A program made the position numbers and the translations under genes. Positions 12,626 to 61,807 of a DNA stretch of 64,000 nucleotides are shown here, piece by piece. How positions within the stretch are numbered: position 1 is the first letter of the stretch; each line of letters starts with the position of its first letter. The notes beneath the pieces are model-generated. The model saw only the letters and a program-made list of their open reading frames with translations, was not told the origin of the DNA and ran no database searches. Source of the DNA: an uncultured Planctomycetia bacterium (GTDB lineage Bacteria; Omnitrophota; Gorgyraeia; 1-14-0-20-64-10); assembly GCA_964373295.1 (NCBI GenBank), contig CAYJUA010000001.1:4608-68607 (forward strand). Reading direction: 5' to 3'.

Positions 12626-12645
12626 CGGAAGGCAGGAAGCTCCCC

Positions 12646-20017: not shown

Positions 20018-20028
20018 TGGCATTCGCG

Positions 20029-23078: not shown

Positions 23079-23091
23079 CGCAGAGGGGGAG

Positions 23092-40459: not shown

Positions 40460-40460
40460 T

Positions 40461-44518: not shown

Positions 44519-45444
44519 GCGGGGCTGTGGGCCAACCTCTCTCGGGGGAAGAGACCGGGCAGAGGATCGCCTTCCCGTGCCCCCTCTGCGGCAGGACGGA
44601 TCTGAAGGTGCTCTACCCGGACACGCTCGGCCAAGAGATGCCGCGCTTCGGGTACGATTTCACGCCGGAGCACACACGGACCTACCGGGTCGTCCTCTGC
44701 CGCCCCTGCCGGCACGCCTTCTGCTCCCCGAGACCCGCGCGCCTGTGGGCGGAATACGCGGAGGTGGAGGACCCTGCCTACCTGGAGCGGCAGGAGGACC
44801 GGATCGCCACCGCTGGCCAGGTGCTCTCGCGCCTCCAACGCTTCGCCCCGTCGGGACGCCTCCTGGACATCGGCTGCGCCACCGGCGATTTCCTCGCCGT
44901 CGCCCGCGAGAACTACCAGGTCGAGGGCTTGGAGCTCTCCGCTTGGGCTGCCGCGATCGCCCGGCGCCGCGGCCTCACCCTCCATGAAACCGACCTGGCC
45001 GGCTTTCACCCCAACGCTCCCTTCGACCTGCTGACCCTGTGGGGAGTGATCGAGCATTTCGAGGACCCGGCGCGGGAGGTGCGCACGATGTCCCGCCTGG
45101 TCCGCCCCGGGGGCCTCGTCTGCCTCTGGACCGGAGACCGGGAGGCCTGGCTGGCCCGGCTGCTGGAGCGGCGGTGGTGGTATATTCAGGGTCAGCACCT
45201 CCAGGTCTTCAGCCGGGCCTCGCTGGAGAAGGTCTTCCGGGACGCCGGCTTCGAGACGCTTTGGGTTGGCCGGTACCCCTGCGTCATGACGATGCGCTCC
45301 ATCGCGAAGTCCCTACGGAGGTACCCGCTGCTGGGATCGGCCACCGCACGGCTGCTGGGCTCGGGGCCGCTGGCATCCCGGTCGGTCACGCTGACCCTGC
45401 CGGGCGAGATGTTCGCAGTCTTCAGGAGGAAAACGTCATCGTGA
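44515..45444 (+). CDS. Class-I SAM-dependent methyltransferase with N-terminal Zn-ribbon
   Basis: CPLCG...CRPCRHAFC Zn-ribbon. SAM motif RLLDIGCATGDFL... Confidence 0.7.
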   Translation: MSGAVGQPLSGEETGQRIAFPCPLCGRTDLKVLYPDTLGQEMPRFGYDFTPEHTRTYRVVLCRPCRHAFCSPRPARLWAEYAEVEDPAYLERQEDRIATAGQVLSRLQRFAPSGRLLDIGCATGDFLAVARENYQVEGLELSAWAAAIARRRGLTLHETDLAGFHPNAPFDLLTLWGVIEHFEDPAREVRTMSRLVRPGGLVCLWTGDREAWLARLLERRWWYIQGQHLQVFSRASLEKVFRDAGFETLWVGRYPCVMTMRSIAKSLRRYPLLGSATARLLGSGPLASRSVTLTLPGEMFAVFRRKTSS

Positions 45445-45581
45445 ATCTGCCGTTGGCCTACATGAACCCCGGCGCGGGGAGCCTCCTGCTCCAGCTGATC
45501 CTGATGGGGACGGCCGGCCTCTTCCTGGCGGGTAAGTCCCTCTGGCACTCCTTCCGATCGCTCTGTTCGCGCAAGAAGTAG
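45441..45581 (+). CDS. Small hydrophobic ORF (46 aa, one predicted TM helix); may instead be the displaced 5' end of the next gene
   Basis: GTGA overlap with the upstream stop. Peptide VNLPLAYMNPGAGSLLLQLILMGTAGLFLAGKSLWHSFRSLCSRKK. See the finding on a possible frameshift. Confidence 0.25.
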   Translation: MNLPLAYMNPGAGSLLLQLILMGTAGLFLAGKSLWHSFRSLCSRKK

Positions 45582-45733
45582 ATTCTCTGGCAGGGGAGCT
45601 GGACGAGCTGCGCCGCTTCCACCGGAATGGGAGCTGGCTGCGGCAGGCGCTGGTCTTCTACTCGGAGACGGCCGGTTACTACCCCTGCTTCCGGCCGGTC
45701 CTCCGCGCCCTCCAGCAGCGCTCGCGGGAGGAG

Positions 45734-46711
45734 ATGGGCTACATCACCTCCGACCCCGCCGACCCGCTGCGGTCCTCCGCGCCGGAAGGCCTGCGGGTGT
45801 TCTGGTTCCGGCGCCTCCTCCCCTTCGTGATCCAGTTCCTCCGCGCGCCAGCCCTGGTTATGACGACGACCGACCTCCACCGCTTCCACCTCCGCCGCTC
45901 CGTCTTCCCCGTGAACCACGTCTACCTGTTCCACGCGCTGGTGAGCACCCACATGATCTATCGCTTCGGCGCCTTCGACCATTACGACACGATCCTCTGC
46001 GGCGGCCCCCACCACGTGCGGGAGATCCGCCGGGCCGAGGAGCTTTACCGGCTCCGGCCCAAGCGCCTGCTCGAGGCAGGCTACCCCCACCTGGACGAAC
46101 TGGCGGATGCCCACCGGCGCCGGCTCGGGCGCCCGCGGGAGGGAAAGGGGACCGTTCTCATCGCGCCCTCCTGGGGGGCGGCGAACATCCTGGAGTCCTG
46201 CGAACCCCGCCTGACCCAGGCCCTTTCCGGGGCGGGGTACCGGGTGATCGTCCGACCGCATCCGGAGTTCTGCAGGAGAAACCCTGATCGGATCGCCCAA
46301 CTTTCAAAAATTCTCGCTTCGAAGGGGGGGGTCATGGACATGGACTACGGCTCCGAGGAATCGCTCCACGCCGCCGACCTGCTGATCACCGATTGGTCCG
46401 GGATCGCGATGGAATACGCCTTCGCCACCGAGAGGCCGGTGCTGTTCCTGGACGTCCTGCGGAAAGTCAATAACCCCAGGTACGAGGAGCTGGGGATCCC
46501 TTCCCTGGAGGCCGAGATCCGGGAAAGGATCGGGCAGGTGGTTTCTCCTGTGGAGGTCGAGCGGATCCCCGGCCGTGCCGAACAGATGCTGCGGGAGGGC
46601 CCGGACTACCGGCCGCGCATCGTTGAGGAGCGCGCCCGACGCCTCTTCAACGCAGGATCCTCCGCCGCGGCCTGCGCCGACTTCCTCCTTGAACTCCGCC
46701 GGCCCGTCTGA
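45734..46711 (+). CDS. TagB/TagF-family (CDP-alcohol phosphotransferase-type, GT-B) protein. The annotated start is probably too far downstream
   Basis: ...KGTVLIAPSWGAANI... and ...ADLLITDWSGIAMEYAFATERPVLFLD... match the TagF catalytic domain. The frame stays open upstream to 45536 and there encodes ALVFYSETAGYYPCFRPVL, a conserved TagF N-terminal motif, but without an ATG, GTG or TTG. Confidence 0.65.
   Translation: MGYITSDPADPLRSSAPEGLRVFWFRRLLPFVIQFLRAPALVMTTTDLHRFHLRRSVFPVNHVYLFHALVSTHMIYRFGAFDHYDTILCGGPHHVREIRRAEELYRLRPKRLLEAGYPHLDELADAHRRRLGRPREGKGTVLIAPSWGAANILESCEPRLTQALSGAGYRVIVRPHPEFCRRNPDRIAQLSKILASKGGVMDMDYGSEESLHAADLLITDWSGIAMEYAFATERPVLFLDVLRKVNNPRYEELGIPSLEAEIRERIGQVVSPVEVERIPGRAEQMLREGPDYRPRIVEERARRLFNAGSSAAACADFLLELRRPV
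46324..46331 (+). repeat. Poly-G tract (G8) inside the TagF-like CDS
   Basis: ...cgaagGGGGGGGGtcatgg... encodes SKGGV. Coordinates are +/-1. Confidence 0.45.
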
Positions 46712-46754
46712 TAGCATGGCTGTCAACTGATAGCTGACAGGTGAACCCCTGCCC
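46709..46754 (+). promoter_or_regulatory. Candidate operator: direct repeat TGATAGC (x2) interleaved with the inverted repeat CTGTCA-n9-TGACAG, immediately upstream of the XRE-HTH nucleotidyltransferase gene
   Basis: tgatagcatggCTGTCAactgatagcTGACAGgtgaa read directly from the sequence. AGGTGA Shine-Dalgarno about 12 nt before GTG 46755. Confidence 0.3.
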
Positions 46755-47924
46755 GTGAAAAGCTCCGCCAAAAAAACCAACGGATCCCGGCCCACGAACG
46801 GCTCCCGGAAGCCCTTCGGGAGTGTGGTCCGCTCCCTCCGCAAAAAGGCCAACTTGAGCCTCCGCGAGATGGCCCGCCGGACGGGGATCACCGCCTCGTA
46901 CCTCAGCGACATCGAGGCCCTCCACCGGCGGCCGCCTTCCAAGGAGGTCATCCAGCGGTTGGCCGCCGAACTGCGCGTCGCCCCGGAGGGGCTGTTCGAC
47001 CTGGCGGGGCTGGACGGCGACCGGATCCCCCCGGACGTCCCCGACATCATCAAATGGAGGCCGGAGTCGGTCTCCCTCCTGCGGGCCATCCGGCACCACC
47101 AATCCTCCTCGCAGCAGATTCGGGACCTCACCCGCCGGGTGGGCGGGGCGGAGGTGCGGGCCCTGATCCTGGCGGCGGGGATGGGCACGCGGCTGAAAGA
47201 ATACACGCAGGACCTCCCCAAGTGCATGGCCGTGGTGCTCAACGGCAAACCGCTCATCGAGATCCAGATGGATACCCTCCGAGCCTGCGGGATCAGCGAC
47301 ATCTCGATCGTCCGGGGGTACAGAGCCGAGAAGATGCGGTTTCCGGAGGTGCGCTGCTACCACAACCCCGACTATGCGCGCACCAACATCCTCGCCTCCC
47401 TATTCAGCGCCGAGGAGGCGCTCGATGGTGACGTGATCGTCTCCTATTCCGACATCTGGTACGAGACCGCCGTGGTGAAGCGGCTCCTCCGGTGCGAGAA
47501 GGACATCGCCATCGGCGTGGACATCGACTGGAAGGAGTATTACCTGGGCCGGAAGGACCACCCCATCGAGGAGGCCGAGAACGTCATCCTCGACAGCGAC
47601 AACCGCGTGGTGAAGATCGGCAAGATCGCCGCTGAGAAGGCGGAGGTCCACGGCGAGTTCATCGGGATGATGAAGCTCACCCGCCGGGGCTGCGAGCTGC
47701 TCCGGCGCCACTACCACCGGGCGAAGGCGGCGCACGAGGGCAAGCCGTTCCAGCGGGCCGCCCGCTTCGAGGAGGCGTACCTGACCGACCTCCTCCAGGA
47801 GATGGCGGACCTCGGGGTGCCGATCCACGGCGAGATCATCGGCTCCGGCTGGAAGGAGATCGACACCGTGGAGGATCTCCAGAAGGCGATCGCTGTTTTC
47901 CATCAGAAGGAGACGCTTTCATGA
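46755..47924 (+). CDS. XRE-family HTH domain fused to a sugar/alcohol-phosphate nucleotidyltransferase (LicC/cytidylyltransferase-like)
   Basis: GTG start. HTH SLREMARRTGITASYLSDIE. Nucleotidyltransferase signature RALILAAGMGTRLKEYTQDLPKCMAVVLNGKPLIE. C-terminal ...HGEIIGSGWKEIDTVEDL. An A7 run sits at codons 6-7. Confidence 0.75.
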   Translation: MKSSAKKTNGSRPTNGSRKPFGSVVRSLRKKANLSLREMARRTGITASYLSDIEALHRRPPSKEVIQRLAAELRVAPEGLFDLAGLDGDRIPPDVPDIIKWRPESVSLLRAIRHHQSSSQQIRDLTRRVGGAEVRALILAAGMGTRLKEYTQDLPKCMAVVLNGKPLIEIQMDTLRACGISDISIVRGYRAEKMRFPEVRCYHNPDYARTNILASLFSAEEALDGDVIVSYSDIWYETAVVKRLLRCEKDIAIGVDIDWKEYYLGRKDHPIEEAENVILDSDNRVVKIGKIAAEKAEVHGEFIGMMKLTRRGCELLRRHYHRAKAAHEGKPFQRAARFEEAYLTDLLQEMADLGVPIHGEIIGSGWKEIDTVEDLQKAIAVFHQKETLS

Positions 47925-48640
47925 TGCAGTCCCAGAATGTTGTCCAGCAGGCCCTCTACAAGAGTCACGGAACCCTGATCCATGCCTGGCGCAACGAAGT
48001 CAAGCACACCTTCGAGATGGTTTCCCGGGACACCGGCATCCCGGTCGAGCGCCTCCGCTCCCTCGAGGCGGGAATGGAGAAGCCCTCCTGGGAGGAGCTG
48101 GAGCTCCTGGCCAGGCAATTCACCGTGAGCGTCCGGGACCTCCTCCCCTTTGAGAACGACCTCGACCGCGGCATGAAGTTCCTGAGGAACCGGGACGCCC
48201 GCGCCTTTGACCAAAAGAGAGCGGGGCAGCTGCAGTACACCTATTGGGAGAGGGTGATGACCTCCGCGATCCCGGGGATCAAGCCGGTCGAACTGCTCCT
48301 CCATCTGAACCGGAGGGAGGAGGTCGTCATGAACCGCGGGCATTTCTTCCATCAGTACACGCAGGTCCTCCACGGCGGGCCTGTGGCCTATCTGTGGGAG
48401 TGGAAGGGCGCCACGCATGAGGATGTCTTCGAGGAAGGGGACTCCTGGCTGATCCCCGGTTTCGTCCCCCACGGCTTCTACTCTCCCGATGCGCAGCGGC
48501 CCGGGCAGATCCTGGCGATCACCTTCGGCCAAAACCTCACCGGGGACGCGCGCCAGGAGCTGGCCCTCCTCGGACGGGAGAACGCCTCTCGGATCGTCTC
48601 CGATGACCAGGACTACTACCCCCAGGAGGGGCGGAAGTGA
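47921..48640 (+). CDS. XRE-like HTH domain fused to a single metal-binding cupin domain (HppE-like architecture; could also be a cupin-sensor regulator)
   Basis: ATGA overlap. HTH TFEMVSRDTGIPVERLRSLEAG. Cupin motifs NRGHFFHQYTQVLHG and GDSWLIPGFVPHGF with conserved His residues. Confidence 0.7.
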   Translation: MMQSQNVVQQALYKSHGTLIHAWRNEVKHTFEMVSRDTGIPVERLRSLEAGMEKPSWEELELLARQFTVSVRDLLPFENDLDRGMKFLRNRDARAFDQKRAGQLQYTYWERVMTSAIPGIKPVELLLHLNRREEVVMNRGHFFHQYTQVLHGGPVAYLWEWKGATHEDVFEEGDSWLIPGFVPHGFYSPDAQRPGQILAITFGQNLTGDARQELALLGRENASRIVSDDQDYYPQEGRK

Positions 48641-48644
48641 GTCG

Positions 48645-50342
48645 ATGACCGAGCGGGCGTCTTCCTTAAGAAAGCGCCTCCGATCCGGGAAGATCGTCCG
48701 GGCCATGGGAGCCCACAATGGGCTGGGGGCCCGACTCATCGAGCGGACCGGCTTCGACGCCGTCTGGGCCAGTGGCTTGGAGATCTCCACCGCCTACGGC
48801 GTGCCCGATGCCAACATCCTCACCATGACGGAAAATCTCGATGCCGCCCGGGCGATCCACGAGGCGACGGCGCTGCCGATCATCTGCGACTGCGACACCG
48901 GCTACGGCAACGCTTCCAACGTCCGCCACATGGTCCGCCGCTACGAGGCGGCGGGGCTGGCGGCCATCGTCATCGAGGACAAGATCTTCCCCAAGGTCAA
49001 CAGCTTCATCCCGGACGGACAGGAGCTGGCCCCCGTGGGCGAGTTCATGGGGCGAATCCGGGCGGCCAAGGCCACCCAACGCAACCCGGATTTCATGGTC
49101 TTCGCGCGGGTGGAAGCGCTGATTGCCGGCTGGGGCCTCGAGGAGGCGATGCGCCGCGCCAATGCCTACGTGGATGCCGGCGCCGACGGGATCGTGATTC
49201 ACTCGAAGGCTTCTTCTCCCGAAGAGGTGCTTGCCTTCGCCCGGAGCTGGAAGCGGCCCGTGCCCCTCGTGGCGATCCCGACCACCTACTACCAAATCAC
49301 GGCCGAGGAGCTGCAGCGGGCAGGCTTCTCCATGGTGATCTACGCCAACCATGGCCTCCGGGCGGCGATCCGCGCGATGGAATCCACCTTCCGCGAGATC
49401 CAGCGGACCGGGACGACCCTGGGAGTGGAGGGAAAGATCGCCACCCTGAAAGAGGTCTTCGAGCTCCAGGGGATGAAGGACCTCAAGGAGGACGAAAAGC
49501 GCTTCTCCGGCGAAGAGCCGATCCGGGTGGTGATCCCCGCGGCCCGCGACCACCGGAGGCAGACGGACCTCTGGGAGCTGCTCCCTGACAAGCCTCTCTG
49601 CATGCTGGAGATGGGAGGGAAGACCCTCCTCGACCGGCAGATGGAGCTTCTCCGCTCGGTGGGTGCCGCCGACATCCACGTGGTCGGCGGCTATCTCCAC
49701 GAGCGGATCAAGGCGGAGGGGGCCCACGTCCTCTTCAACCCGGACTACGCCCGGTACCACTGCGCCCAGTCGATCCTCTTCGCCAAGGAGCACCTCCAGG
49801 GAAGGACCCTGCTGGTCTATTCCGATGTCCTGTTCGACCGACAGATCCTGGAGCGCCTCGTGGAGAGCCCCCACCCCATCACCCTCGTCATCGACCGGGC
49901 CTACCAGACCCTTCCCCTGCGCGAGAAGTCGCTGGACCTCGTTGCGGTGGATGCGGTCGGCGAGGCGGCGGGGCGTCGGCTGCGCATGAACCTGTTCAAG
50001 CCGATCCGGCAGATCGGGAAAGGCGTCGTCCAGCGGCCCACGCACGAGTTCATCGGAGTCGCTTTCCTCCGCGACAACGGAGCCGAGGAGCTCAAGCGCG
50101 CCTGGGAGGAGGCGCTGGCCGAGTTCCGCGGCAAGCCGTTCCATGAAGCGCGCAGCGTGGAGGAGGCTGACCTCACGGACCTGCTCCAGCACATGATCCG
50201 CCGGGGCACCCCCGTCTTCGGGATGGAGATCGAGCACGGCTGGTCCGAGATCCATTCGCGGGACGACTACGATCGGGTGCGGCAGCATTTTCAGAAGCCG
50301 GCCATGGCGCTGGCCGGCGGGAGAAGCCTTTCGCCGCGCTGA
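48645..50342 (+). CDS. Phosphoenolpyruvate phosphomutase (Ppm) fused to a C-terminal nucleotidyltransferase-like domain with a degenerate active-site loop
   Basis: Ppm N-terminus LRKRLRSGKIVRAMGAHNGLGARLIERTGFDAVWASGLE and signature AIVIEDKIFPKVNSF. The C-terminal about 250 aa is a paralog of the 46755 nucleotidyltransferase domain (LTDLLQHMIRRGTPVFGMEIEHGWSEI vs LTDLLQEMADLGVPIHGEIIGSGWKEI), but the glycine-rich loop is VVIPAARDHRRQ instead of LAAGxGTRL. Confidence 0.85.
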   Translation: MTERASSLRKRLRSGKIVRAMGAHNGLGARLIERTGFDAVWASGLEISTAYGVPDANILTMTENLDAARAIHEATALPIICDCDTGYGNASNVRHMVRRYEAAGLAAIVIEDKIFPKVNSFIPDGQELAPVGEFMGRIRAAKATQRNPDFMVFARVEALIAGWGLEEAMRRANAYVDAGADGIVIHSKASSPEEVLAFARSWKRPVPLVAIPTTYYQITAEELQRAGFSMVIYANHGLRAAIRAMESTFREIQRTGTTLGVEGKIATLKEVFELQGMKDLKEDEKRFSGEEPIRVVIPAARDHRRQTDLWELLPDKPLCMLEMGGKTLLDRQMELLRSVGAADIHVVGGYLHERIKAEGAHVLFNPDYARYHCAQSILFAKEHLQGRTLLVYSDVLFDRQILERLVESPHPITLVIDRAYQTLPLREKSLDLVAVDAVGEAAGRRLRMNLFKPIRQIGKGVVQRPTHEFIGVAFLRDNGAEELKRAWEEALAEFRGKPFHEARSVEEADLTDLLQHMIRRGTPVFGMEIEHGWSEIHSRDDYDRVRQHFQKPAMALAGGRSLSPR

Positions 50343-50350
50343 AAGCAGCC

Positions 50351-51484
50351 ATGACCTTGCCGGCCCCATACTGGAACCCGACCCGGCGGCTGATCGCCGA
50401 GGGAGCGCTCGCCCGGATCGGCGAGGCGGCCGGAGAATACCGGCCCAAGAAGATCCTCCTGGTCCTGGGCCGTTCCTCTTTCCGCGGGTCCGCCCATGAC
50501 CGCGCCCTGCGGGACGCCCTCACGGGTTTCCAGGTGGAGGAGTCCAATCCGGTGCAGCACAGCCCCAGCATCGCCTTCATCCAGGAAATGTGGAACGCCC
50601 TGAAGGGGAGGGGCATCGATCTCGTGGTCGGGGTGGGAGGGGGGAGCGTGATCGACTGCGCGAAAGCGATCCGGATCCTTCTCACGCAGGGAGAGGGCAC
50701 CTTGGAGGATTACGCCGAGAAGCGCCGTGCGTTCCGGAAGCCGGGGCTGCCGTTCATCGCCGTGCCCACCACCGCCGGAACCGGCAGCGAGGTGACGCCC
50801 TACTCCTCCCTGCAGACCGCGGCGCACCAGAAGATCAGTCTGACGCACCCCTGGCTTTTCCCGGAGCTGGCGCTCATCGACCCCCTGCTCACCCACTCGA
50901 TGCCCCGCTACGTCACCGCCTGCACGGCGTTGGACGCCCTGGCGCAGGCGATCGAGTCCTTCTGGTCCGTCCACCACACGCCGTTCTCCGAGACGCATTC
51001 GATCCGCGCCATCACCTTGATCCTGGAGAACCTGCCCGTGGTCCTGCGGGAGCCGGGGAACGCCCCTGCCAGGTTCGCCATGTCGGTGGCGAGCTGCGAG
51101 GCAGGGCTGGCGATCACGCAGACCCGCACCACGGCGGTCCACGCCGTTTCCTATCCCCTGACCACCTTCTTCGACATCCCCCACGGCCACGCCTGCGCCC
51201 TCACGCTCCCCTCCTTCATCCGGTACAACGGCACGGCGCTGGAGCCCGTCCGGGGAGTCGTCCTCTGGAGGGCGCTGGGGTGCAGCTCCTGGGAGGAGGC
51301 GGCGCGGCGGGTCGAGCACCTGATGGACGAAGCGGGCGTCGAGCGTTCCCTGCGCAAGATGGGACTGGACGAGAAAGGGATCCAGACGGTGATCGACCAC
51401 GGGTTCCGCTCGGACCGCGTGGTGAACAACCCCCGGGAAGTCACTCAGGAGGCGCTGCGTGAAATCCTCGAAAAGATCTACTGA
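50351..51484 (+). CDS. Iron-containing (group III) alcohol dehydrogenase, phosphonoacetaldehyde-reductase (PhpC/FomC)-like by context
   Basis: ...DLVVGVGGGSVIDCAKAI...PFIAVPTTAGTGSEVTPYSS... and His-rich metal site ...AVHAVSYPLTTFFDIPHGHACAL... are typical of the Fe-ADH family. Confidence 0.8.
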   Translation: MTLPAPYWNPTRRLIAEGALARIGEAAGEYRPKKILLVLGRSSFRGSAHDRALRDALTGFQVEESNPVQHSPSIAFIQEMWNALKGRGIDLVVGVGGGSVIDCAKAIRILLTQGEGTLEDYAEKRRAFRKPGLPFIAVPTTAGTGSEVTPYSSLQTAAHQKISLTHPWLFPELALIDPLLTHSMPRYVTACTALDALAQAIESFWSVHHTPFSETHSIRAITLILENLPVVLREPGNAPARFAMSVASCEAGLAITQTRTTAVHAVSYPLTTFFDIPHGHACALTLPSFIRYNGTALEPVRGVVLWRALGCSSWEEAARRVEHLMDEAGVERSLRKMGLDEKGIQTVIDHGFRSDRVVNNPREVTQEALREILEKIY

Positions 51485-53123
51485 CGCGGCGGGCATGGCC
51501 CCCCCGGACCTCTTCTGGGCGGCGTGGGGCGCCACCACGCTGCTCGTCCAGATCCCGCTGAGCGGGATGATCCTGCAGGACCCCCAATCCCTCCTGCTCG
51601 GCGTCTGGAACCTGAAAACCCTGGCGCTGTTTTGCGCGGTGACCTTCCTGGGCCTCCCCCTTGCGGTGGGGGCCGCCTGGGCCGCGGCGGCCAGGGTCTC
51701 CACGCGCTGGGCCTGCCTCCTCCTGGCGGTTGGGATCGCCTATGTCCTGACGATGCAGATCAATTTCCATTACCTCCAGGTCCGCTTCTTCGATATGGCT
51801 TGGCGCCGCATGGCGGAAGTGGTGCTGTTCGGTGTCGGCGCCGCAGCCTGCTGGGCGGGACGGAGAGGGCTCACCCGGCTTCTCAAGGTCTGCGCCGGGC
51901 TGAGCGCCGCGGTCTGCCTCCTTTTCGCCTTCCAGGCCTGGCCCTCCTCCTCGGGAAAGGCCTCCCCGGCGGATGAGGCTCCTCAGACGCAGGATTCCCC
52001 ATCGGCGGAATTCCCGGTTTTCTTCCTGACCTTCGAGAAGCTCTGCGCCTCGTACGTGGCGGATGAGCAGGGCCGCGTCGTCGCCGACCGGCTGCCCAAC
52101 CTGGCGAAGTTCGCCTCGGAGGCCGACGACTATCCGGAAACCCACGCCAACTGCACGGCCACGGTTTACTCTCTGAAGACCCTCTATTCCGGCAGAGTGA
52201 CCACGCGCGCGAAGGACTGGGCCCGCCGCCCGAACCTGAGGGACATCGTGGGCGCGAACCGCAAGGTCGTGATGCAGCTGGACCTTCTGACAAACTACTG
52301 CGACCCCGAGCGCAACGTCTGCCTGAGGGCGATCGGATTGGAAGGGATCCGCGGGGTGGACCTCATCGCAGGCTGGTACAAAACGTACGTGCTCACGATC
52401 CTGCCGGATCCGCTGGAGCTGCGCCTGACCCTGCGGGGTTGGAACTTCAACCCCTGGACGGACCTGTGGATCCGCGAGGAGGAGGGGTTGGCTCCGGGAG
52501 AGGAAGTACACCACCGGGTAGGCCGCCGGCAATTCCAGCGCCTCCGCGAGGAAATCCAGCGGCAGGGGAATGCCCCGAACCTCTACCTCATGCACAATTT
52601 CATCTCCGACACGCCCGAGGTGAAGGCTTCCGGCCTGTCTGGAAAGCACTGGGAACGGTACGCGGAGGAGCTGGACGGGGCGCGCCGCAACCTGGCCGTC
52701 TTCGATGAGGAACTGGGGAAGTTCTTCGATTTCCTCAAGGAGAAGGGCCTTTACGACCGGTCGCTGATCGTGGTCACCACCGACACCGGATACGACTACG
52801 ATTCGCGGCGGGTCCTGGGCGACGCGGAGCTGCCCCCTTCGCGCGACCTCACGCGGATCTTCTTCGCGCTCAAGCGCCCCGGCCAGAAAGAGGGAAGGGT
52901 CTTCCGCTCGTCCCTGCGGCATGTGGACGTTCTGCCGACCCTGCTCGCCCACTTGGGCATCGATCCCAAACCCTACGGGTTCGAGGGGGTCCCGGTCACG
53001 GACCCTTCCGAGCAGGCCACGCTGCGGGAGCGCCCGCTGGATTTCATGCTGACCTCCGAGCAGGCCGGCGTGCTGCGCTATCGGATGGACCAGCCGCAGG
53101 GCGGCATGCGGAGGGTCCGGTAG
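51459..53123 (+). CDS. Membrane-anchored alkaline-phosphatase-superfamily (sulfatase/LtaS/EptA-like) transferase
   Basis: About 5 N-terminal TM segments. The soluble domain has ...[13 protein letters not shown]..., ...[17 protein letters not shown]... and ...[16 protein letters not shown]..., which are characteristic of sulfatase-fold phospho-headgroup transferases. The track start overlaps the ADH by 26 nt. An in-frame ATG at 51495 is an alternative. Confidence 0.6.
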
Positions 53124-53127
53124 CGCG

Positions 53128-54177
53128 ATGAACATCCTGGTCACCGGGAGCAGCGGCCTGATCGGCTCGGAAGCGGTGGAGTACTTCGACAAGCGCGGGC
53201 ACACCGTTCACGGCGTTGACAACAACATGCGGATGGAGTTCTTCGGGCCGGGAGGGGACACCCGCTGGAACCTGCGGCGGCTGCGGGCCTCCTGCAGGCG
53301 TTTTCAGCACCACGAGCTGGACATCCGCGACCGGGCGGGGGTCCTGCGGCTCTTCGGGGAGGTCCTCATCGATTGGGTGATCCACTGCGCAGCCCAGCCG
53401 TCCCACGATCTGGCCAAGCAGCGGCCCCTGGACGACTTCGACGTCAACGCGGTCGGGACCATCAACCTGTTGGAAGCGACCCGCCGGCACGCGCCGGAAG
53501 CGGTCTTCTGCCTGCTCAGCACGAACAAGGTCTACGGGGACGCACCGAACAAGCTCCCCCTCAAGGAGGAGCCGACCCGCTGGGACTACGCCGACCCCAA
53601 ACAGGCTCACGGCGTGGACGAGCGTTGCCGGCTGGACTTCTCCACCCACAGCGTCTTCGGCGCCAGCAAGGCGGCCGCCGACCTGATGACCCAGGAGTAC
53701 GCCCGCACGTTCGGGATGAAGACCGGCGTTTTCCGGGGGGGATGCCTGACCGGGCCCCAGCATTCGGGCGTGGAGCTGCATGGGTTCCTTTCGTACCTCG
53801 TCAAGGTCGTGAAGAGCGGGACTCCCTACCGGATCTATGGCTACAAGGGCAAGCAGGTCAGGGACCAGATCCACAGCTTCGATGTGATCCGCGCCCTCGA
53901 GGAGTTCGCCGACAATCCCCGCCCGGGCGAGGTCTACAACATCGGAGGGGGGCGGGGCAACAGCCTTTCCATCCTGGAGGCCATCGACACGGCGGAGCGT
54001 CTGACCGGCAGGAAGTTCGAATACGAGTACGTGGAGACGCCAAGGGTCGGCGACCACATCTGCTACATCACCGATTTCCGGAAGCTGCAGTCCCACTATC
54101 CCAACTGGGAGATCACGAGAAGCCTGCTCTCGATTTGGGAGGAGATGATGGAGGCCGTCCCGTGCGCGTCACGCTGA
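53128..54177 (+). CDS. NAD-dependent epimerase/dehydratase, CDP-paratose-2-epimerase-like
   Basis: [52 protein letters not shown]... is the pattern of the RfbE/CDP-tyvelose epimerase subgroup. Confidence 0.7.
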
Positions 54178-55703
54178 TCCACCCACCGCAGTTCGTCGCC
54201 TACGGGAACCAGGTCTCCACCATCGCGATGCCCCCCCTGGGGCTCGCTTACCTGGCCAGCAGCCTGAGGGAAGCGGGCCACCCGGTGTCGCTGGTGGACG
54301 GCTTCGGCGATGGGCTGGACCGGCAGACGCCGTTCGGCCACGGGTCGGTCTACCTCTGGGGGCTTCCGGACGAGGAGATCGTTTCCCGGATCCCGCGAGA
54401 CACCGAGGTGATCGGGGTCGGCCAGATGTTCTCCTCGGGCTGGCTTTCCGTCCGGATCCTCCTGAAGAAGATCAAAGAGGCTTTTCCCTCGGTGCCCCTC
54501 CTCCTGGGCGGAGAGCACGCCTCCGGCCTGCCGGCGATGTGCTTCTCGCAGAGCCCCATCGACCTGCTGGTCCAGGGGGAAGGGGAGGAGACCCTCGTGG
54601 AGCTGGTGGGGAAGCTGGCTTCGGGAGATCCGGTTGAGGCGGTCCCCGGGGTCGGCTACCGCAAGGACGGACGGATGATGCTGAACCCCAGGCGGAACCG
54701 GATTCGCAACGTGAACGACATACCCTGGCCGGCCTGGGATCTCGTAGACCTGGAGGGCTACATCCGGGTGAACTGCCCCCACGGCATCGCGCGCGGGCGC
54801 TTCATCCCCATGCTGGCGACCCGGGGATGCCCGTTTCAGTGCACCTTCTGCACCAGCCCTCAGATGTGGACCCAGCTTTGGATCGCGCGCGACGTCAAAG
54901 GCGTGGTCGACGAGATCGAGCATTACGTCCGCGAGTACCGGATCCAGGACATCCAGTTCGAGGACCTCACCGCGATCGTGCGGAGGGACTGGATCGTCGA
55001 GTTCTGTCGGGAGATCCTGAGAAGAGGGCTCGAGATCACTTTCCAGCTTCCCTCCGGGACCCGCAGCGAAGCGGTGGACAAGGAGGTGGCGGCCCTGATG
55101 AAGCAGGCCGGCTGCCCGGAGTTCTCCTTCGCCCCGGAGTCCGGGGACGAGGAGACCCTGAAGATCATCAAGAAGCAGGTCAACCTGAAGAAGATGTTTG
55201 CCTCTGCGCGCGACGCGATCCGAGCCGGGATCGGCGTCTCCTGCTTCTTCATCATTGGATTTCCCCACGAGCGCTGGAAGCACATCCTCAACACCTACGG
55301 GGCCCTGGTTCGGTGCGCCGTCATGGGGATCAAGACGGTCAGCGTCAACGTCTTCTCGCCGGAGCCCTCCACGCGCCTGTTCAACGAGCTGCTGGAGCAG
55401 AAGAAGATCCAGCTGGACGATCCCTTCCTCTGGTCGCTGTTTGATTTCCCCGCGTTCGGCCGGAAGAAGACGTCGTTCAACGACCGGTTCAGCGACGTCC
55501 AGATCACGGCGATTTCGGTCGGCGGGATGTTCCTTTTCTACGCGATCCGCTACCTCCTGCGCCCCCACCTGCTCATCGGGGTCCTCCGGGAGACGTTTGG
55601 GGAGACCCCCCACAACGACAACCGGCTGGGGAAATACCTCCGCGCGATGCGGAAGGAACTCATCCGCTCGCTCAAGTTCAAGTTCCGGCGGGCGGTGGCG
55701 TAA
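54162..55703 (+). CDS. B12-binding-domain radical SAM enzyme (class B; Fom3/GenK-type C-methyltransferase candidate)
   Basis: GTG start overlapping the epimerase by 16 nt. B12-like N-terminal domain. Canonical cluster motif [17 protein letters not shown]. About 514 aa. Confidence 0.8.
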
Positions 55704-55704
55704 C

Positions 55705-56427
55705 ATGTATCCCCGGGAACGGCTCGAATACGAGCGGCAGGTTTGGAAGCGGAAACCCTCGCTGAGGATCCTGAAGGCGGACTATTATGCCCAAGTCCGC
55801 GACCACCTCCCTCCCGGGGGAAGGAAGGTGGTCGAGCTGGGCTCCGGCTGCGGGGGCCTGAAGGAGTCGATCCCCGGGGTGATCCAGACCGACATCTTTC
55901 CTACCCCCTGGGTGGATGTGGTGACCGCAGCTGAGCGGCTGCCGTTCGCCGACGGGTCGGTGGACGGGCTGATCGGACTCGATGTGCTGCACCACCTGGA
56001 GGAGCCGCTCCGGTTCTTCCGAGAAGCGGCGCGGGTGCTGCAGGCCGGCGGACGGCTGATCCTGATCGACCCCTACGTGAGCCTGGGCTCCTGGATCCCG
56101 TGGCATTACCTCCACCACGAGGCCTGCTTGATGCGGGAACCCTACAGCCTGGCCGGCCGGTTCGAGCGCGAGAACAACGCCCGGGCCACGCTGTGGTTTG
56201 ACGGCAACCGCGCCCGCACCGAAGCCCTGATCCGGCCCTTGCGCCTCCAGACGATGAAAACCTTCGACCTGTTTTATTACCCCCTCACCGGCGGGTTCCG
56301 GCCGTGGTCCTTGATCCCTCCCGGGTTCGCCCGCGGGCTGCTGCGGGCGGACCGCTGGCTCGGGAACTGGCTCGGCCGGTGGCTCGGCTATCGGATGCTT
56401 CTGGTCTTTGAAAAGGCTCCGGTATGA
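55705..56427 (+). CDS. Class-I SAM-dependent methyltransferase
   Basis: Motif I KVVELGSGCGGL and motif ...VDGLIGLDVLHHLEEP...GGRLILIDP. Confidence 0.7.
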   Translation: MYPRERLEYERQVWKRKPSLRILKADYYAQVRDHLPPGGRKVVELGSGCGGLKESIPGVIQTDIFPTPWVDVVTAAERLPFADGSVDGLIGLDVLHHLEEPLRFFREAARVLQAGGRLILIDPYVSLGSWIPWHYLHHEACLMREPYSLAGRFERENNARATLWFDGNRARTEALIRPLRLQTMKTFDLFYYPLTGGFRPWSLIPPGFARGLLRADRWLGNWLGRWLGYRMLLVFEKAPV

Positions 56428-57941
56428 GCCGACAGGCCCACCACGAGCGGATCCGGCGGCATTTCGACTCCATCGCGCCCGCTTACCTCCGCTGGAAGGG
56501 TGTGAACGCCTACTACAACAACCAGCTGATCCGCTGGTGCCGCTCCCGGGTCCCGCCGGGGCGGAGGATCCTGGACCTCGGGTGCGGGCGGGGAGACACC
56601 CTCGCGGCGCTCGAGCCCCGGGAAGGGACCGGCATCGACCTCAGCGGAGAGATGATCCGCCGAGCCGCCGTCGACCACCCGGCCTTCGATTTCGAGGAGA
56701 CCCGGATCGAGGAGTTCGAGCCGCGGAGGGAATACGACGTGGTCCTGTGCGTCAACACGCTCGAGTACACGTGGGACATCAGCGCCGTGCTGGACAAGAT
56801 CCACGCCTGTCTGCGCGACAACGGCCGGGTCCTCATCGCCACCGGGAACCCCCTCTGGTCCCCCATCTTCCACCTGGCCAGCTCCTGGGGGCTCCGGATG
56901 CCGGAATGCACGCGCCTGTTCATCACCAACAAGGACCTGGAGAACATGCTGGCCCTGCACGGGTTCGACGTGGTGGACTCCCGGATGGCGCTGCCCCTCC
57001 CGAAATTCATCCCCCTCCTGACCCCTCTTGTGAACTGGCTCCTCCCCCGGATCCCGCTCCTGAACCTGCTCTGCTCGACCCAGCTGATCACCGCCCGGAA
57101 GATCCCGCCGGTCCGAAAGGACTACTCGGTGTCGATCATCGTCCCCTGCCACAACGAGGCGGGCAACGTTGAGCGCTGTGTGCGGGAGACGAGGAGGCTG
57201 GGGCTGCGGACCGAGCTGATCTTCGTGGACGACGGATCCACCGATGGGACCGCGCAGGCGGTCCGGCCGGAGATGAACCCCGGTCTGGAGGTGAAGGTCG
57301 TCCGCTACACGCCCAACCGCGGCAAGGGCCGCGCCGTCCAGGCAGGCATCGAAGCGGCCACAGGGGACATCGTCATGATCGTGGACGCGGATCTCACCAC
57401 CCATCCCGCGGAGCTGGGCCCCCTCTACGAGGCCTTCGCATCGGGCCACGCCGAATTCGTCAACTGCACCCGCTTCGTCTATCCTCGGGAGCGCAACTCC
57501 ATGCGGATGGCCAACTACATCGGCAACAAGCTGTTCGCCATCTGGGTGAGCCTCGTGATGGAGGCGAGGGTGAGCGACACCCTCTGCGGGACGAAGGCGA
57601 TGTTCCGGTGGGACTACGACCACATGGCGATGGGCCGGGACCGGTGGGGGGATTACGACCTGCTGTTCGGCGCGGCCCAGCAGCGCCTGGTGATCCGCGA
57701 ACTGCCGGTCCACTACCAGGGGCGGCGGGCGGGCCAATCCAAGATGAAGACCCTCCGGCACACGCTCAACCTGTTCCGAATGTGCTGGCATGGGTTCTGG
57801 CAGGTGAAGACGCTCCGTCCGCTGCCACCGGCCCGCCGCCGGAAGCCCTTGCCCGCGCGCGGACCGGGGCAGGATCTCGCGGGCGCGCCGCGCGAAGCCG
57901 CGCCCTCAGCGCCCATCCTGGAAGGCGGGGAAGAGGGATGA
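56424..57941 (+). CDS. Bifunctional SAM-dependent methyltransferase (N-terminal) / family-2 glycosyltransferase (C-terminal)
   Basis: ATGA overlap. MTase motif RILDLGCGRGDTL. GT2 part SVSIIVPCHNEAGNVERCV...LIFVDDGSTDGT...IVMIVDADL. Confidence 0.75.
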   Translation: MSRQAHHERIRRHFDSIAPAYLRWKGVNAYYNNQLIRWCRSRVPPGRRILDLGCGRGDTLAALEPREGTGIDLSGEMIRRAAVDHPAFDFEETRIEEFEPRREYDVVLCVNTLEYTWDISAVLDKIHACLRDNGRVLIATGNPLWSPIFHLASSWGLRMPECTRLFITNKDLENMLALHGFDVVDSRMALPLPKFIPLLTPLVNWLLPRIPLLNLLCSTQLITARKIPPVRKDYSVSIIVPCHNEAGNVERCVRETRRLGLRTELIFVDDGSTDGTAQAVRPEMNPGLEVKVVRYTPNRGKGRAVQAGIEAATGDIVMIVDADLTTHPAELGPLYEAFASGHAEFVNCTRFVYPRERNSMRMANYIGNKLFAIWVSLVMEARVSDTLCGTKAMFRWDYDHMAMGRDRWGDYDLLFGAAQQRLVIRELPVHYQGRRAGQSKMKTLRHTLNLFRMCWHGFWQVKTLRPLPPARRRKPLPARGPGQDLAGAPREAAPSAPILEGGEEG

Positions 57942-61795: not shown

Positions 61796-61807
61796 GGGGA
61801 TTCCAGC

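Follow-up and report, generated by a model that had tools for sequence, protein, structure and literature searches.

Polysaccharides that carry phosphonates are already on record. Nitrosopumilus possesses a methylphosphonate-modified exopolysaccharide, with nucleotidyltransferase (NTase) and sulfatase genes in the gene neighbourhood, and MPnS neighbourhoods with NTase and arylsulfatase genes have been read as making methylphosphonate esters on exopolysaccharide (PMC9381506). In Glycomyces and Stackebrandtia, going by two papers that cite the original work, the phosphonoglycans carry 2-hydroxyethylphosphonate, or 2-HEP (Yu et al. 2014, J Bacteriol 196:1768, cited in PMC8942020 and PMC8931226). 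The preliminary description of the locus considered here held that a glycan bearing a fosfomycin-pathway phosphonate was undescribed, which in view of these precedents is too strong; what appear to be new are a half-size oxygenase and a layout lacking phosphonopyruvate decarboxylase (Ppd).

The locus lies in a window of 64 kb, that is, the whole stretch of DNA that was analysed. Every gene listed in the preliminary description is present at the coordinates given there, on the + strand and with a third-position GC as high as in real genes; the products starting at 45734, 47921, 50351, and 54162 match the database gene calls exactly. The genes do form a set for adding a carbon-phosphorus compound to a sugar polymer of the cell surface, and the idea of a phosphonate module inside a glycan locus stands. 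A PEP mutase (Ppm) that is true by profile, an iron alcohol dehydrogenase (Fe-ADH) of phosphonate type, an NTase, and candidate TagF-like and LtaS-like transferases were all found. We consider it somewhat probable that 45442..53123 is a head-group cassette, by which a small phosphonate would be made, CMP-activated, and attached to the polysaccharide of the surrounding 60-kb glycan operon. The label of a fosfomycin-type toolkit survives only in part: the gene set is real and co-occurring, but the HppE identity of the cupin, the Fom3 equivalence of the radical-SAM enzyme, and the Fom1 domain order are not supported.

The co-occurrence of the cassette genes is not chance. The same order recurs elsewhere: over 30 independent loci, spread across several phyla, have the pair of NTase and cupin genes, mostly with Ppm and Fe-ADH too, usually in the order NTase, oxygenase, Ppm-NTase, Ppd, and Fe-ADH. 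The NTase is immediately upstream of the oxygenase in every locus having upstream sequence (33/33), the oxygenase is followed by the Ppm-NTase in about 20 loci, and Ppd and Fe-ADH come next in 11 of the 15 that reach far enough. Next to the cassette, genes of TagF-like and sulfatase-like type are found repeatedly. Five loci (L016, L017, L027, L038, and L045) possess the NTase, oxygenase, and ADH with no Ppm or Ppd within 10 kb; the supply genes can, therefore, be unlinked. A Nitrospinia MAG has the same core followed by a CDP-alcohol phosphatidyltransferase, a layout that fits a CMP-activated head group being handed to different acceptors.

The protein encoded at 47921..48640 (239 aa) was assigned by PDB profile search, Foldseek, residue table, and tree to the non-haem-iron oxygenases of the MPnS/HEPD/HppE superfamily, with a single HTH-cupin module. 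Judged from its sequence, it is an uncharacterised half-length relative of MPnS and not fosfomycin epoxidase-like. The best match in both sequence and fold is MPnS of Nitrosopumilus maritimus (6b9s/6b9t), where a Ppm-Ppd-Pdh-MPnS cluster serves a methylphosphonate-esterified exopolysaccharide; the profile search gave E=2e-52 for MPnS (6b9s), 4e-37 for the class-II HEPD of Streptomyces albus (SaHEPD, 6b9r), 2.5e-13 for Psf4, and 1.6e-11 for HppE. MPnS differs in having two modules (~450 aa), and identity to it is only ~26-28%. The AlphaFold model of the window's oxygenase is moderate (pLDDT 70.8).

The family to which this oxygenase belongs consists of ~160 proteins, at least 63% identical and found only in assemblies of uncultured organisms (MAGs), which are annotated at source as 'XRE family transcriptional regulator'. 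One might, therefore, take the protein for an XRE-family regulator of the operon, its cupin domain acting as a sensor, and the weak Pfam matches to HTH_3 and HTH_31, which are below threshold, as well as the XRE-cupin regulator 1y9q at rank 41 of the fold search, point the same way. The cupin half is detected solely via structure and PDB comparison. Against such a role, ranks 1-40 of the Foldseek search are all enzymes (MPnS, HEPD, HppE, Psf4, or PhpD), the enzymes' iron ligands and their four phosphonate-binding residues do not vary in the family, and identity of at least 63% across phyla, together with a fixed place in biosynthetic operons near Ppm, is atypical for a local regulator. We regard a regulator as highly improbable.

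The iron site of the oxygenase is 2-His-1-Gln (H141, Q145, and H184), and the residues expected to bind 2-HEP are K28, R100, Y108, and N138. All of these are invariant across 28 family members and align with the substrate and iron ligands common to all MPnS, HEPD, and HppE representatives, save for the ligand type at the Gln position, which is Glu in HppE. The cupin had been taken for an HppE/Fom4-type epoxidase, and HppE/Fom4 and Psf4 (1zz6, 5u55) do share with it the single HTH-cupin module, similar size, the same fold, the Lys/Arg/Tyr/Asn set, and two His. This identity was rejected, as the iron ligand is Gln and not the Glu of HppE/Psf4, and the match to MPnS is ~40 orders of magnitude better (1e-52 vs ~1e-11 to 1e-13).

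In the literature, the markers of MPnS are Phe and Ile in addition to the 2-His-1-Gln triad (PMC11978286). The product-determinant positions of the window's oxygenase are Tyr157 and Ile178; across the family, Ile178 is invariant and position 157 is Tyr or Phe. With MPnS it shares the triad, the Lys/Arg/Tyr/Asn substrate residues, and Ile at the 184-equivalent position, but has Tyr where MPnS has Phe162. With class-II HEPD it shares the triad, the substrate residues, and Tyr at the 163-equivalent position, and differs in its single module, in its invariant Ile versus the Gly184 of the SaHEPD type, and in the absence of a phosphinothricin-type small-molecule cluster. The pairing of Tyr157 with Ile178 occurs in none of the two-module representatives compared in the residue table. 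Because Ile178 is invariant, we lean, weakly, toward methylphosphonate as the product, at slightly better than an even chance, with hydroxymethylphosphonate a tentative second; the uncertainty arises since Tyr157 is the HEPD-type residue.

The oxygenase would bind 2-HEP through its Lys/Arg/Tyr/Asn residues and its 2-His-1-Gln Fe(II) site, as do MPnS and class-II HEPD, and O2-dependent cleavage between C1 and C2 would then yield either methylphosphonate and CO2 (MPnS-like) or hydroxymethylphosphonate and formate (HEPD-like). Being half-size, it probably functions, like HppE, as a homo-oligomer in which each module has its own active site. It may also be that the enzyme acts on CMP-2-HEP and not on free 2-HEP.

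The locus also resembles the phosphonoglycan cluster of Glycomyces, a pepM-containing glycan cluster with a 2-HEP-pathway phosphonate on exopolysaccharide as summarised in the citing papers (PMC8942020, PMC8931226). It differs in that an MPnS/HEPD-type oxygenase is central, which suggests that the head group is processed beyond 2-HEP. It is unlikely, though worth weighing, that 2-HEP itself is installed, as in Glycomyces and Stackebrandtia, with the oxygenase only diverting or trimming part of the pool or acting on a polymer-bound residue. Those 2-HEP exopolysaccharides are, in the citing papers' account, the one chemically characterised precedent for a glycan cluster with Ppm and Fe-ADH (PMC8942020, PMC8931226), but the oxygenase is the most conserved cassette protein (63-85% identity across phyla vs 53-58% for Ppm and 47-53% for ADH), and its constant coupling to the NTase indicates a central and not an accessory role. 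The window also holds many O-methyltransferases, a further resemblance to that precedent; Yu and colleagues are said to have reported partly O-methylated sugars.

The product of 48645..50342 is a fusion, with a PEP mutase in the first ~290 residues and a diverged NTase-like domain in the last ~220, as the preliminary description had recognised. The profile comparison that it proposed gives 335.2 bits to TIGR02320 (cutoff 319.55), the match to PDB 5unc has E=5e-109, and the motifs EDKIFPKVNS and CDCDTGYG are present, as is the peptide AIVIEDKIFPKVNSF, with an NTP_transf_3-like domain behind. By these measures the protein is a true PEP mutase, and its Ppm domain would convert PEP to phosphonopyruvate. 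The proposed likeness to Fom1 was not upheld: the order here is Ppm-NTase, the reverse of Fom1 with its N-terminal cytidylyltransferase, and in the fused domain IPAARDHRRQ replaces the canonical G-x-G-x-R loop, a variant (IPAAxDH(R/Q)) conserved in six Ppm-NTase fusions. Fusion to PF12804 is found in about a third of Ppm enzymes (PMC6697681). As with PntC/LicC-type cytidylyltransferases, the Ppm-PF12804 fusions of Rice et al. 2019, and Fom1, the window has a Ppm fused to PF12804 and a stand-alone NTase within two genes, both common in phosphonate clusters.

The stand-alone NTase (46755..47924) is intact, as had been claimed, with a Pfam NTP_transf_3 domain and the canonical motif LILAAGMGTRL...LPK. 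It also has an N-terminal XRE-type HTH (HTH_3), which the preliminary description lacked and which sets it apart from PntC/LicC and Fom1. It ends in a 4-bp overlap between its stop and the start of the oxygenase. This translationally coupled enzyme is, by analogy with PntC, LicC, and Fom1, the proposed maker of the CMP conjugate of the oxygenase product.

The Fe-ADH (50351..51484) is a group-III enzyme (Pfam Fe-ADH and ADH_Fe_C) that is conserved in the cassette loci. The earlier assignment to the phosphonate type agrees with its best NCBIfam match, the phosphonate-associated equivalog TIGR03405 (Phn_Fe-ADH), although at 244 bits it is below the cutoff of 424. From family and synteny, it is the proposed phosphonoacetaldehyde reductase that would make 2-HEP.

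The step between Ppm and Fe-ADH is the weakest. Ppd is not encoded in the 64-kb window (best tblastn E=0.68; best profile E=1.1), whereas most relatives encode it between Ppm and ADH. The Ppm reaction does not run forward without a sink (PMC8942020), and Ppd is presumed to act in trans, converting phosphonopyruvate to phosphonoacetaldehyde. Four independent loci retain the layout without Ppd. Within the window's Ppd-less sub-clade, dN/dS is 0.09-0.31 for all cassette genes, indicating purifying selection. The preliminary description had placed CMP-activated 2-HEP or 2-hydroxypropylphosphonate on a glycan; a CMP-activated 2-HEP-derived phosphonate installed on polysaccharide is still the most economical reading, but the pathway as drawn needs the Ppd that the window lacks.

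The sub-clade might instead bypass phosphonoacetaldehyde, with another enzyme, for example, the PGDH-like 2-hydroxyacid dehydrogenase at 62527..63507 (VlpB-like), turning phosphonopyruvate into phosphonolactate and a C3 phosphonate or derivative serving as head group. The absence of Ppd from four independent loci under selection is in keeping with this, the window and L006 both combine the Ppd-less variant with a PGDH-like 2-Hacid_dh, and the VlpB route is known as a branch that does without Ppd (PMC8942020). We find this quite unlikely. The active site of the oxygenase is identical in Ppd-plus and Ppd-less variants, which argues for the same substrate, and the Fe-ADH would have no obvious role. 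In the window, the 2-Hacid_dh is 12 kb off, beside a KdsB-type cytidylyltransferase, SDRs, an HpcH aldolase, and a HAD protein, which look like a keto-deoxy-ulosonic-acid sugar pathway.

Compared with the MPnS locus, then, the window shares Ppm, Fe-ADH, nucleotidyltransferase, and sulfatase-like genes (PMC9381506), and differs in lacking Ppd and in being bacterial, high-GC, and within a much larger glycan operon. Compared with fosfomycin systems, it lacks Fom2 and FomD, and its oxygenase is independent of a Fom3-type methylase.

This last point concerns the genes downstream of the cassette. The gene at 54162..55703 had been described as Fom3-like; it does encode a class-B radical-SAM enzyme (Pfam B12-binding and Radical_SAM, motif CPFQCTFC), but the likeness to Fom3 is one of enzyme class only. 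Following fosfomycin-like logic, CMP-2-HEP would be made by an NTase, C-methylated by the radical-SAM enzyme to CMP-2-hydroxypropylphosphonate, and oxidised by an HppE-like cupin before or after transfer to the glycan. In the window and in L019, the radical-SAM gene shares the operon and lies 1 kb past the downstream end of the cassette, the enzyme's best NCBIfam matches after BchE include phosphonate-pathway B12-rSAM P-methyltransferases (far below their cutoffs), and the oxygenase is of the same superfamily as HppE. We nonetheless judge this pathway very unlikely. An ortholog of the radical-SAM enzyme occurs only in the window and L019 among 40-odd cupin-bearing loci, and the oxygenase therefore does not depend on its methylation. 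It has >3,000 homologs; homologs 51-56% identical adjoin a methyltransferase-GT2 fusion or NeuB/glycan genes, and the surroundings contain no phosphonate genes. It is translationally coupled to a sugar epimerase/dehydratase and not to a phosphonate gene, and neither a FomD-type hydrolase nor Ppd is present in the window; the Gln ligand and the far better match to MPnS, given above, also speak against it.

For the radical-SAM enzyme, methylation of a sugar or glycan is the probable function, and 53128..57941 (the SDR, radical-SAM, and methyltransferase genes, all on the + strand) are a glycan-tailoring module separate from the cassette. The SDR sugar epimerase/dehydratase (53128..54177; Pfam Epimerase, 143 bits) overlaps the radical-SAM start by 16 bp, and its ortholog in L019 is 89% identical and likewise adjoins the radical-SAM gene. 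There follow a SAM-dependent methyltransferase of ~240 aa (55705..56427; Methyltransf_11), with 69% identity to its L019 ortholog, and a methyltransferase-GT2 fusion (56424..57941; Glycos_transf_2 and Methyltransf_23); Nitrospina gracilis has the same fusion after its radical-SAM homolog. The gene at 18320..20017, once considered a second copy of the radical-SAM enzyme, is of the same class but only 25% identical, and is not a copy.

Two transferases had been placed on either side of the module, and both genes are there. The TagF-like CDP-alcohol-type phosphotransferase (45734..46711; Pfam Glyphos_transf, 50.4 bits, cutoff 22) is the candidate CMP-phosphonate transferase, which would release CMP as it passes the phosphonyl group to a hydroxyl of the glycan; TagF transfers from CDP-glycerol in like manner. 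Its orthologs adjoin the cassette in L005, L006, L008, L020, L027, and L037. The second (51459..53123) is a membrane-anchored LtaS/sulfatase-like protein of the alkaline-phosphatase superfamily, with about four hydrophobic segments within its first 160 residues, 24.7 bits to Pfam Sulfatase (just under the cutoff of 25), and a match to PDB LtaS (E=5.7e-9) covering the C-terminal part of the sulfatase fold only. Orthologs occur in L006, L008, L019, and L020. It may also take part in the transfer, possibly as a second, extracytoplasmic transferase or esterase, a role that is uncertain.

The start of the TagF-like gene deserves attention. In-frame homology to the N-termini of relatives runs upstream of 45734 to ~45584, with no ATG, GTG, or TTG there, so that the conserved N-terminal ~50 residues have no canonical start. 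Directly before this gene is a small ORF (45442..45581, + strand) of 46 hydrophobic amino acids, with a GTG start and AGGAGG upstream, which in tblastn is 47-69% identical to 47-aa ORFs of L005 and L006 (E=1e-15 to 2e-19).

The 239-aa product of 47921..48640 (+), in which Pfam and NCBIfam searches find only a weak HTH match, belongs by sequence and predicted fold to the superfamily of HTH-cupin Fe(II) oxygenases that comprises methylphosphonate synthase (MPnS), 2-hydroxyethylphosphonate dioxygenase (HEPD), and the fosfomycin epoxidase HppE. Compared with PDB sequences twice, as a single sequence and as a family profile, it matched MPnS (6b9s) at 3e-43 and 2e-52, the HEPD of S. albus (SaHEPD, 6b9r) at 2e-35 and 4e-37, the epoxidase Psf4 at 6e-12 and 2.5e-13, and HppE at 2e-4 and 1.6e-11, respectively. 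Since it aligns to each half of 6b9s and the ~450-aa enzymes separately, it is a single HTH-cupin module, whereas MPnS (~450 aa) consists of two tandem modules, as does HEPD. The AlphaFold (AF2) model (pLDDT 70.8 overall, 80-93 in the cupin core) has helices at residues 14-67 and a beta-barrel at 95-202, that is, the N-terminal helical HTH-like domain and C-terminal cupin barrel of the superfamily. In a Foldseek search with this model, ranks 1-40 were all taken by MPnS, HEPD, HppE, Psf4, and PhpD, and the first ordinary XRE-cupin regulator came only at rank 41.

An alignment of 28 family members shows no variation at seven residues (K28, R100, Y108, N138, H141, Q145, and H184). A joint alignment of this half-size family with 35 two-module representatives, MPnS, SaHEPD, HppE, and Psf4 matches these columns to the Lys/Arg/Tyr/Asn phosphonate-binding residues and the iron ligands shared by the four named enzymes. 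For the third iron ligand the family shares the Gln of MPnS and class-II HEPD, whereas HppE, Psf4, and the HppE-like representatives have Glu there. HppE, likewise a single module, has an iron site of two His and one Glu (Glu142 in S. wedmorensis). The protein had initially been likened to HppE/Fom4, and this remains apt for its single, HppE-sized HTH-cupin module, but the iron site is of the MPnS type; on this ligand, and on a score far weaker than that to MPnS, HppE itself is rejected. A neighbor-joining tree of the joint alignment, built without support values and therefore not used for ancestry, has HppE on one side of the single-module clades and the two-module enzymes on the other.

Born and co-workers reportedly set out, in 2017, the residue logic for methylphosphonate synthesis. 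The markers, as a later paper gives them (PMC11978286, citing Born et al. 2017), are the 2-His-1-Gln triad with Phe162 and Ile184 beside the Gln. In the joint alignment this Phe/Ile pair splits the two-module representatives cleanly into a Phe/Ile group and a Tyr/Gly group. The half-size family always has Ile178, with Tyr or Phe at position 157; members other than the window protein (P0046, P0095, P0119, and P0120) have Phe and Ile, and some half-size members bear all the published MPnS markers. The window oxygenase itself combines Tyr157 with Ile178, a pairing that occurs in no two-module representative of the joint alignment. Class-II HEPDs have a 2-His-1-Gln site with Tyr163 and Gly184 (SaHEPD numbering); the window enzyme has the Tyr, but the Gly column, which is Gly in 14/14 Tyr-type two-module representatives of the joint alignment, is an invariant Ile, which sets it apart from class-II HEPD. 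Within the scheme proposed below we favor methylphosphonate as the predicted product, with a chance slightly above even, and give hydroxymethylphosphonate a real but clearly smaller one. The putative MPnS activity would convert 2-hydroxyethylphosphonate (2-HEP) to methylphosphonate and CO2.

A database search returned 163 relatives of the oxygenase, nearly all 232-245 aa long and 63-85% identical, whose annotation, if present, reads XRE regulator or hypothetical protein. In an exhaustive search of 50%-identity representatives the family formed one cluster; next in rank came two-module proteins (up to 336 bits) and a small number of further single-module clades. Carriers make up 11 of 185,579 species-representative genomes (a set that does not include the genome of the window); all are MAGs, from Omnitrophota, Planctomycetia, Nitrospinia, Actinomycetota, and Gammaproteobacteria. 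A metagenome scan added 23 loci, TARA contigs among them, and literature searches of limited coverage found no description of short MPnS/HEPD/HppE-like enzymes.

The gene order around the oxygenase is conserved. A nucleotidyltransferase (NTase) gene lies directly upstream in all 33 loci having upstream sequence, and a fusion of PEP mutase (Ppm) to an NTase-like domain lies downstream in ~20. Of the 15 loci that reach past this fusion, 11 encode phosphonopyruvate decarboxylase (Ppd) and an iron-dependent alcohol dehydrogenase (Fe-ADH), and in four, namely the window, L006 (Omnitrophota nzgw286, GCA_023248095.1), L008 (Planctomycetia), and L019, the fusion is followed directly by Fe-ADH, without Ppd. 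These four form the window's sub-clade, with oxygenases at least 76% identical, and have in common a TagF-like gene, a sulfatase-like gene, and SDRs, with a KdsB-type cytidylyltransferase and a PGDH-like dehydrogenase where the contig is long enough (window and L006). A third class of loci (L016, L017, L027, L038, and L045) has NTase, oxygenase, and Fe-ADH and no Ppm or Ppd within 10 kb. Gene order across the locus classes thus marks NTase, oxygenase, and Fe-ADH as the conserved unit, and these three genes behave as a portable module that would lead from phosphonoacetaldehyde to an activated head group for varied transferases.

Individual loci add some detail. In the Nitrospinia locus L017 (9130..13457 of MAG contig JAJDAT010000016.1) the order is NTase, half-size oxygenase, a 283-aa protein, Fe-ADH, and a CDP-alcohol phosphatidyltransferase; the last suggests a lipid acceptor and a phosphonolipid whose head group comes from 2-HEP oxidation. 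In L001 (14730..16012), which contains Ppd, the genes after Fe-ADH encode a NUDIX hydrolase and a cytidylate kinase, which could serve in CMP recycling or CMP-phosphonate editing, and L016 has ORFs of like size at the matching positions. L003 and L020 are two cassette copies in one MAG (GCA_040960315.1), with oxygenases 65% and 74% identical to that of the window, and each adjoins a non-B12 radical-SAM protein (~480-494 aa) on the opposite strand.

In the window, all the genes listed in the preliminary description were found where it had placed them, and four products are identical to database gene calls. Its identification of a PEP mutase in 48645..50342 (+), which has a C-terminal NTP_transf_3-like domain, is upheld: the sequence EDKIFPKVNS is present, TIGR02320 scores 335.2 bits (cutoff 319.55), and the competing profiles all score lower (phosphonopyruvate hydrolase, Pphn_pyruv_hyd, 296 with a cutoff of 374; methylisocitrate lyase, prpB, 194; CPEP mutase 112). 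The motif EDK(X)5NS sets Ppm apart from the remaining isocitrate-lyase superfamily (PMC6697681), the match to the PDB Ppm 5unc has E=5e-109, and by sequence this is a genuine PEP mutase. The likeness to Fom1, on the other hand, does not hold. In Fom1 an N-terminal CyTase domain precedes a C-terminal Ppm domain (PMC6697681); here Ppm comes first, and its NTase-like partner is without the G-x-G-x-R loop. Fusions of Ppm to PF12804 are common, making up about one-third of Ppm enzymes (PMC6697681). In the fused domain (~49680..50342, +) the loop is replaced by IPAAxDH(R/Q)xQ, and the usual Lys position is variable. Because this variant loop is kept in six fusions from different phyla, with and without Ppd, we read the domain as a diverged paralog under selection; it is possibly not a conventional cytidylyltransferase, and its function may be non-standard or regulatory. 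The second NTase, an XRE-type HTH fused to the enzyme (46755..47924, +), is intact as originally described, with the canonical LAAGxGxRL...PK signature. Another such fusion, a winged-HTH/MarR-type domain joined to a sugar-1-phosphate nucleotidyltransferase, occupies 4183..5574 (+).

One enzyme of the canonical Ppm-Ppd-ADH pathway is missing. A ThDP-type Ppd (TPP_enzyme_N/C) was not found among the annotated ORFs of the 64-kb window, nor by tblastn of five cassette Ppds against it (best E=0.68), nor with a profile of five cassette Ppds against all its six-frame ORFs (best E=1.1). The gap between the Ppm-NTase and Fe-ADH genes is only 8 bp, which leaves no Ppd pseudogene remnant, and decay of the cassette is ruled out by dN/dS values of 0.09-0.31 for every gene of the Ppd-less cassette, comparing the window with L005, L006, and L019. 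Ppd is encoded in ~83% of Ppm neighborhoods, and PalB-, FrbC-, and VlpB-type enzymes are recognized alternatives (PMC8942020). The sole candidate of that kind in the window, and a minor rival as a Ppd substitute, is the PGDH-like 2-Hacid_dh at 62527..63507 (+); it is grouped with a KdsB-type cytidylyltransferase, two SDRs, an HpcH-type keto-deoxy-acid aldolase, and a HAD protein, and with these neighbors looks like part of a keto-deoxy-ulosonic-acid sugar pathway. Two further candidates were set aside: the ThDP-dependent E1 alpha-beta fusion at 6697..8802, which is 41 kb away beside DegT and sugar-nucleotide genes and resembles a C2-branch sugar enzyme, and the HpcH/HpaI aldolase at 38728..39807, which would be expected to cleave C3-P instead of releasing C1 and which we assign, together with HAD, KdsB-like, and SDR genes, to an ulosonic-acid pathway. 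Most likely, we assume, Ppd is encoded elsewhere; we prefer this because cassettes with and without Ppd do not differ in the active site of the oxygenase and because other loci have unlinked supply genes. A Ppd-less layout that is under selection raises the question of what pulls the unfavorable Ppm reaction forward.

The Fe-ADH class of 50351..51484 (+), a candidate phosphonoacetaldehyde reductase (PhpC/FomC), is clear, with Fe-ADH and ADH_Fe_C well over cutoff; its best NCBIfam match is the phosphonate-associated TIGR03405, at 243.8 bits under the cutoff of 423.7. The TagF-like domain of 45734..46711 (+) is likewise confirmed (Glyphos_transf 50.4 bits against 22.1, spanning profile positions 149-291 of 367). 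A CMP-phosphonate is the formal analog of CDP-glycerol, the TagF donor, and by that analogy the protein is a plausible transferase for CMP-phosphonate. The membrane protein of 51459..53123 (+) has TM-like segments and a partial sulfatase/LtaS domain; the sulfatase match (24.7 bits, cutoff 25) is limited to the C-terminal third of the fold, LtaS matches at E=5.7e-9, likewise only in its C-terminal part, and the sequence is too divergent for assignment.

Directly upstream of the TagF-like gene, at 45442..45581 (+), is a conserved hydrophobic small ORF of 46 aa with its own AGGAGG and homologs in L005 (7465-7608) and L006 (7508-7651). Right behind its stop codon the TagF-like frame is open (45533..45734, +), with ~50 codons upstream of the annotated ATG at 45734 that are homologous to the N-termini of relatives; this stretch has no ATG, GTG, or TTG in frame and offers only CTG (45587 and 45599) and ATC (45557). 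Either translation starts at a non-canonical codon or by coupling, or the protein has lost part of its N-terminus.

Downstream of an SDR sugar epimerase/dehydratase (53128..54177, +) lies the B12-binding radical-SAM enzyme 54162..55703 (+), which had been compared to Fom3. The B12-binding and radical-SAM class is right (PF02310 and PF04055, with CPFQCTFC, a CxxxCxxC motif, at residue 223), but these are features of the class and are not specific to Fom3, and orthology to Fom3 or an obligate association with a phosphonate pathway that forms CMP-2-HEP is not upheld by gene context. The enzyme's family numbers more than 3,000 proteins of ~510 aa. In the cultured Nitrospina gracilis, a 51% identical homolog precedes the same methyltransferase-GT2 fusion (56424..57941, + in the window, after a methyltransferase at 55705..56427, +) with no phosphonate genes near, and a 56% identical homolog sits amid NeuB, GT2, epimerase, and GNAT genes. 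Orthologs are confined to the window and L019 among 40-odd cassette loci and are translationally coupled in both to the SDR gene, and the best NCBIfam matches (BchE and the Sden_1168 P-methyltransferase) are far under their cutoffs. On this context the Fom3 reading is rejected; a Fom3-like role is biochemically conceivable but finds no specific support, and the evidence favors one in glycan tailoring. The supposed second copy, 18320..20017, is only 25% identical, has the spacing CPYAATACDYC in place of CxxxCxxC, and lies inside a nonulosonic-acid module.

Taken together, we infer that the locus adds a small phosphonate to a polysaccharide, a scheme in which we have somewhat better than even confidence. 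Ppm would convert PEP to phosphonopyruvate, a Ppd not encoded in the window would yield phosphonoacetaldehyde, and Fe-ADH would reduce this to 2-HEP; the single-module oxygenase would then form methylphosphonate or hydroxymethylphosphonate, the canonical NTase would make the CMP conjugate, and the TagF-like and/or LtaS-like protein would transfer it to a glycan as an ester. The enzyme families, conserved active sites, gene order, and purifying selection behind this scheme are observed; each catalytic step, the product, the donor for the transferases, and the acceptor are predicted. Of the fosfomycin-type phosphonate-glycan locus first proposed, what stands is a phosphonoglycan locus whose general type is already known; the fosfomycin-like pathway does not. 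Nor can such a glycan be called new, because phosphonoglycans bearing 2-HEP and methylphosphonate, Ppm-NTase fusions, and MPnS neighborhoods with NTase and sulfatase genes have all been described. Within the literature and databases searched, what appear undescribed are the single-module MPnS/HEPD-type family, its obligate NTase coupling, and the selected Ppd-less layout. Our fuller proposal, that the 239-aa protein founds a family of single-module, HppE-sized MPnS (or of hydroxymethylphosphonate-forming dioxygenases) and that the window's sub-clade reaches the substrate without a canonical Ppd, is tentative and somewhat less likely than not. The family could represent an ancestral type of MPnS/HEPD that works as a homo-oligomer, and it may reveal the origin of the two-module enzymes; an enzyme of HppE size whose iron site is of the MPnS type is also a minimal scaffold for the choice among methylphosphonate, hydroxymethylphosphonate, and epoxide.

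Methylphosphonate is a proposed precursor of aerobic methane in oxic waters, and its producers have been inventoried through full-length MPnS sequences and the His/His/Gln and Phe/Ile markers. A half-size family mis-annotated as XRE regulators would escape such surveys. A recent survey of groundwater detected C-P-lyase expression widely and MPnS in only three samples, and raised the question of where methylphosphonate originates (PMC11978286). Half-size relatives in groundwater Omnitrophota and Planctomycetia, a Nitrospinia MAG, and TARA contigs could be a missing source. If they are active, these uncultured groundwater and marine bacteria would be an unrecognized source of methylphosphonate esters on glycans and lipids, and a methylphosphonate synthase among them would bear on the open question of methylphosphonate sources in groundwater and ocean.

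Nearly the whole window (GC ~67%) is a single + strand operon of glycan genes, running from ~4.2 kb to past 64 kb, with glycosyltransferases, numerous methyltransferases, an ABC exporter, a GT87, and large multi-TM proteins without a Pfam match. The gene at 4183..5574 is followed by a DegT aminotransferase and the single-polypeptide pyruvate-dehydrogenase E1 alpha-beta fusion, which probably adds a two-carbon branch to a sugar. The nonulosonic-acid module (17320..27956, +) comprises a PseB-like dehydratase, a GFO/IDH/MocA oxidoreductase, a CTP_transf_3-aminotransferase fusion (CMP-transferase/aminotransferase), a GT4, NeuB, and a GNAT. Two stretches, 38728..41753 and 60321..63507 (+), encode an HpcH/HpaI-type aldolase, a HAD phosphatase, a TylC3-type sugar C-methyltransferase, two SDRs, the KdsB-type cytidylyltransferase (NF003952 above cutoff), and the PGDH-like dehydrogenase; the set looks like a pathway to a CMP-activated, possibly C-methylated, keto-deoxy-ulosonic acid and, as in L006 too, accompanies the Ppd-less form of the cassette. 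Five large ORFs of 546-813 aa have no Pfam match (12553..17270, 25929..27956, 32662..34302, and 58048..60288, +): three, with 5-8 hydrophobic segments, may be polymerases, flippases, or GT-C-like enzymes, and the remaining two are soluble proteins. At 593..4108 (+), a GDP-mannose-dehydratase/epimerase-like ORF is split by an intein bearing a homing-endonuclease domain of the LAGLIDADG type (Intein_splicing 77 bits, LAGLIDADG_3 44 bits), which coincides with the sole low-GC stretch of the window (0.59 at 2001-4000).
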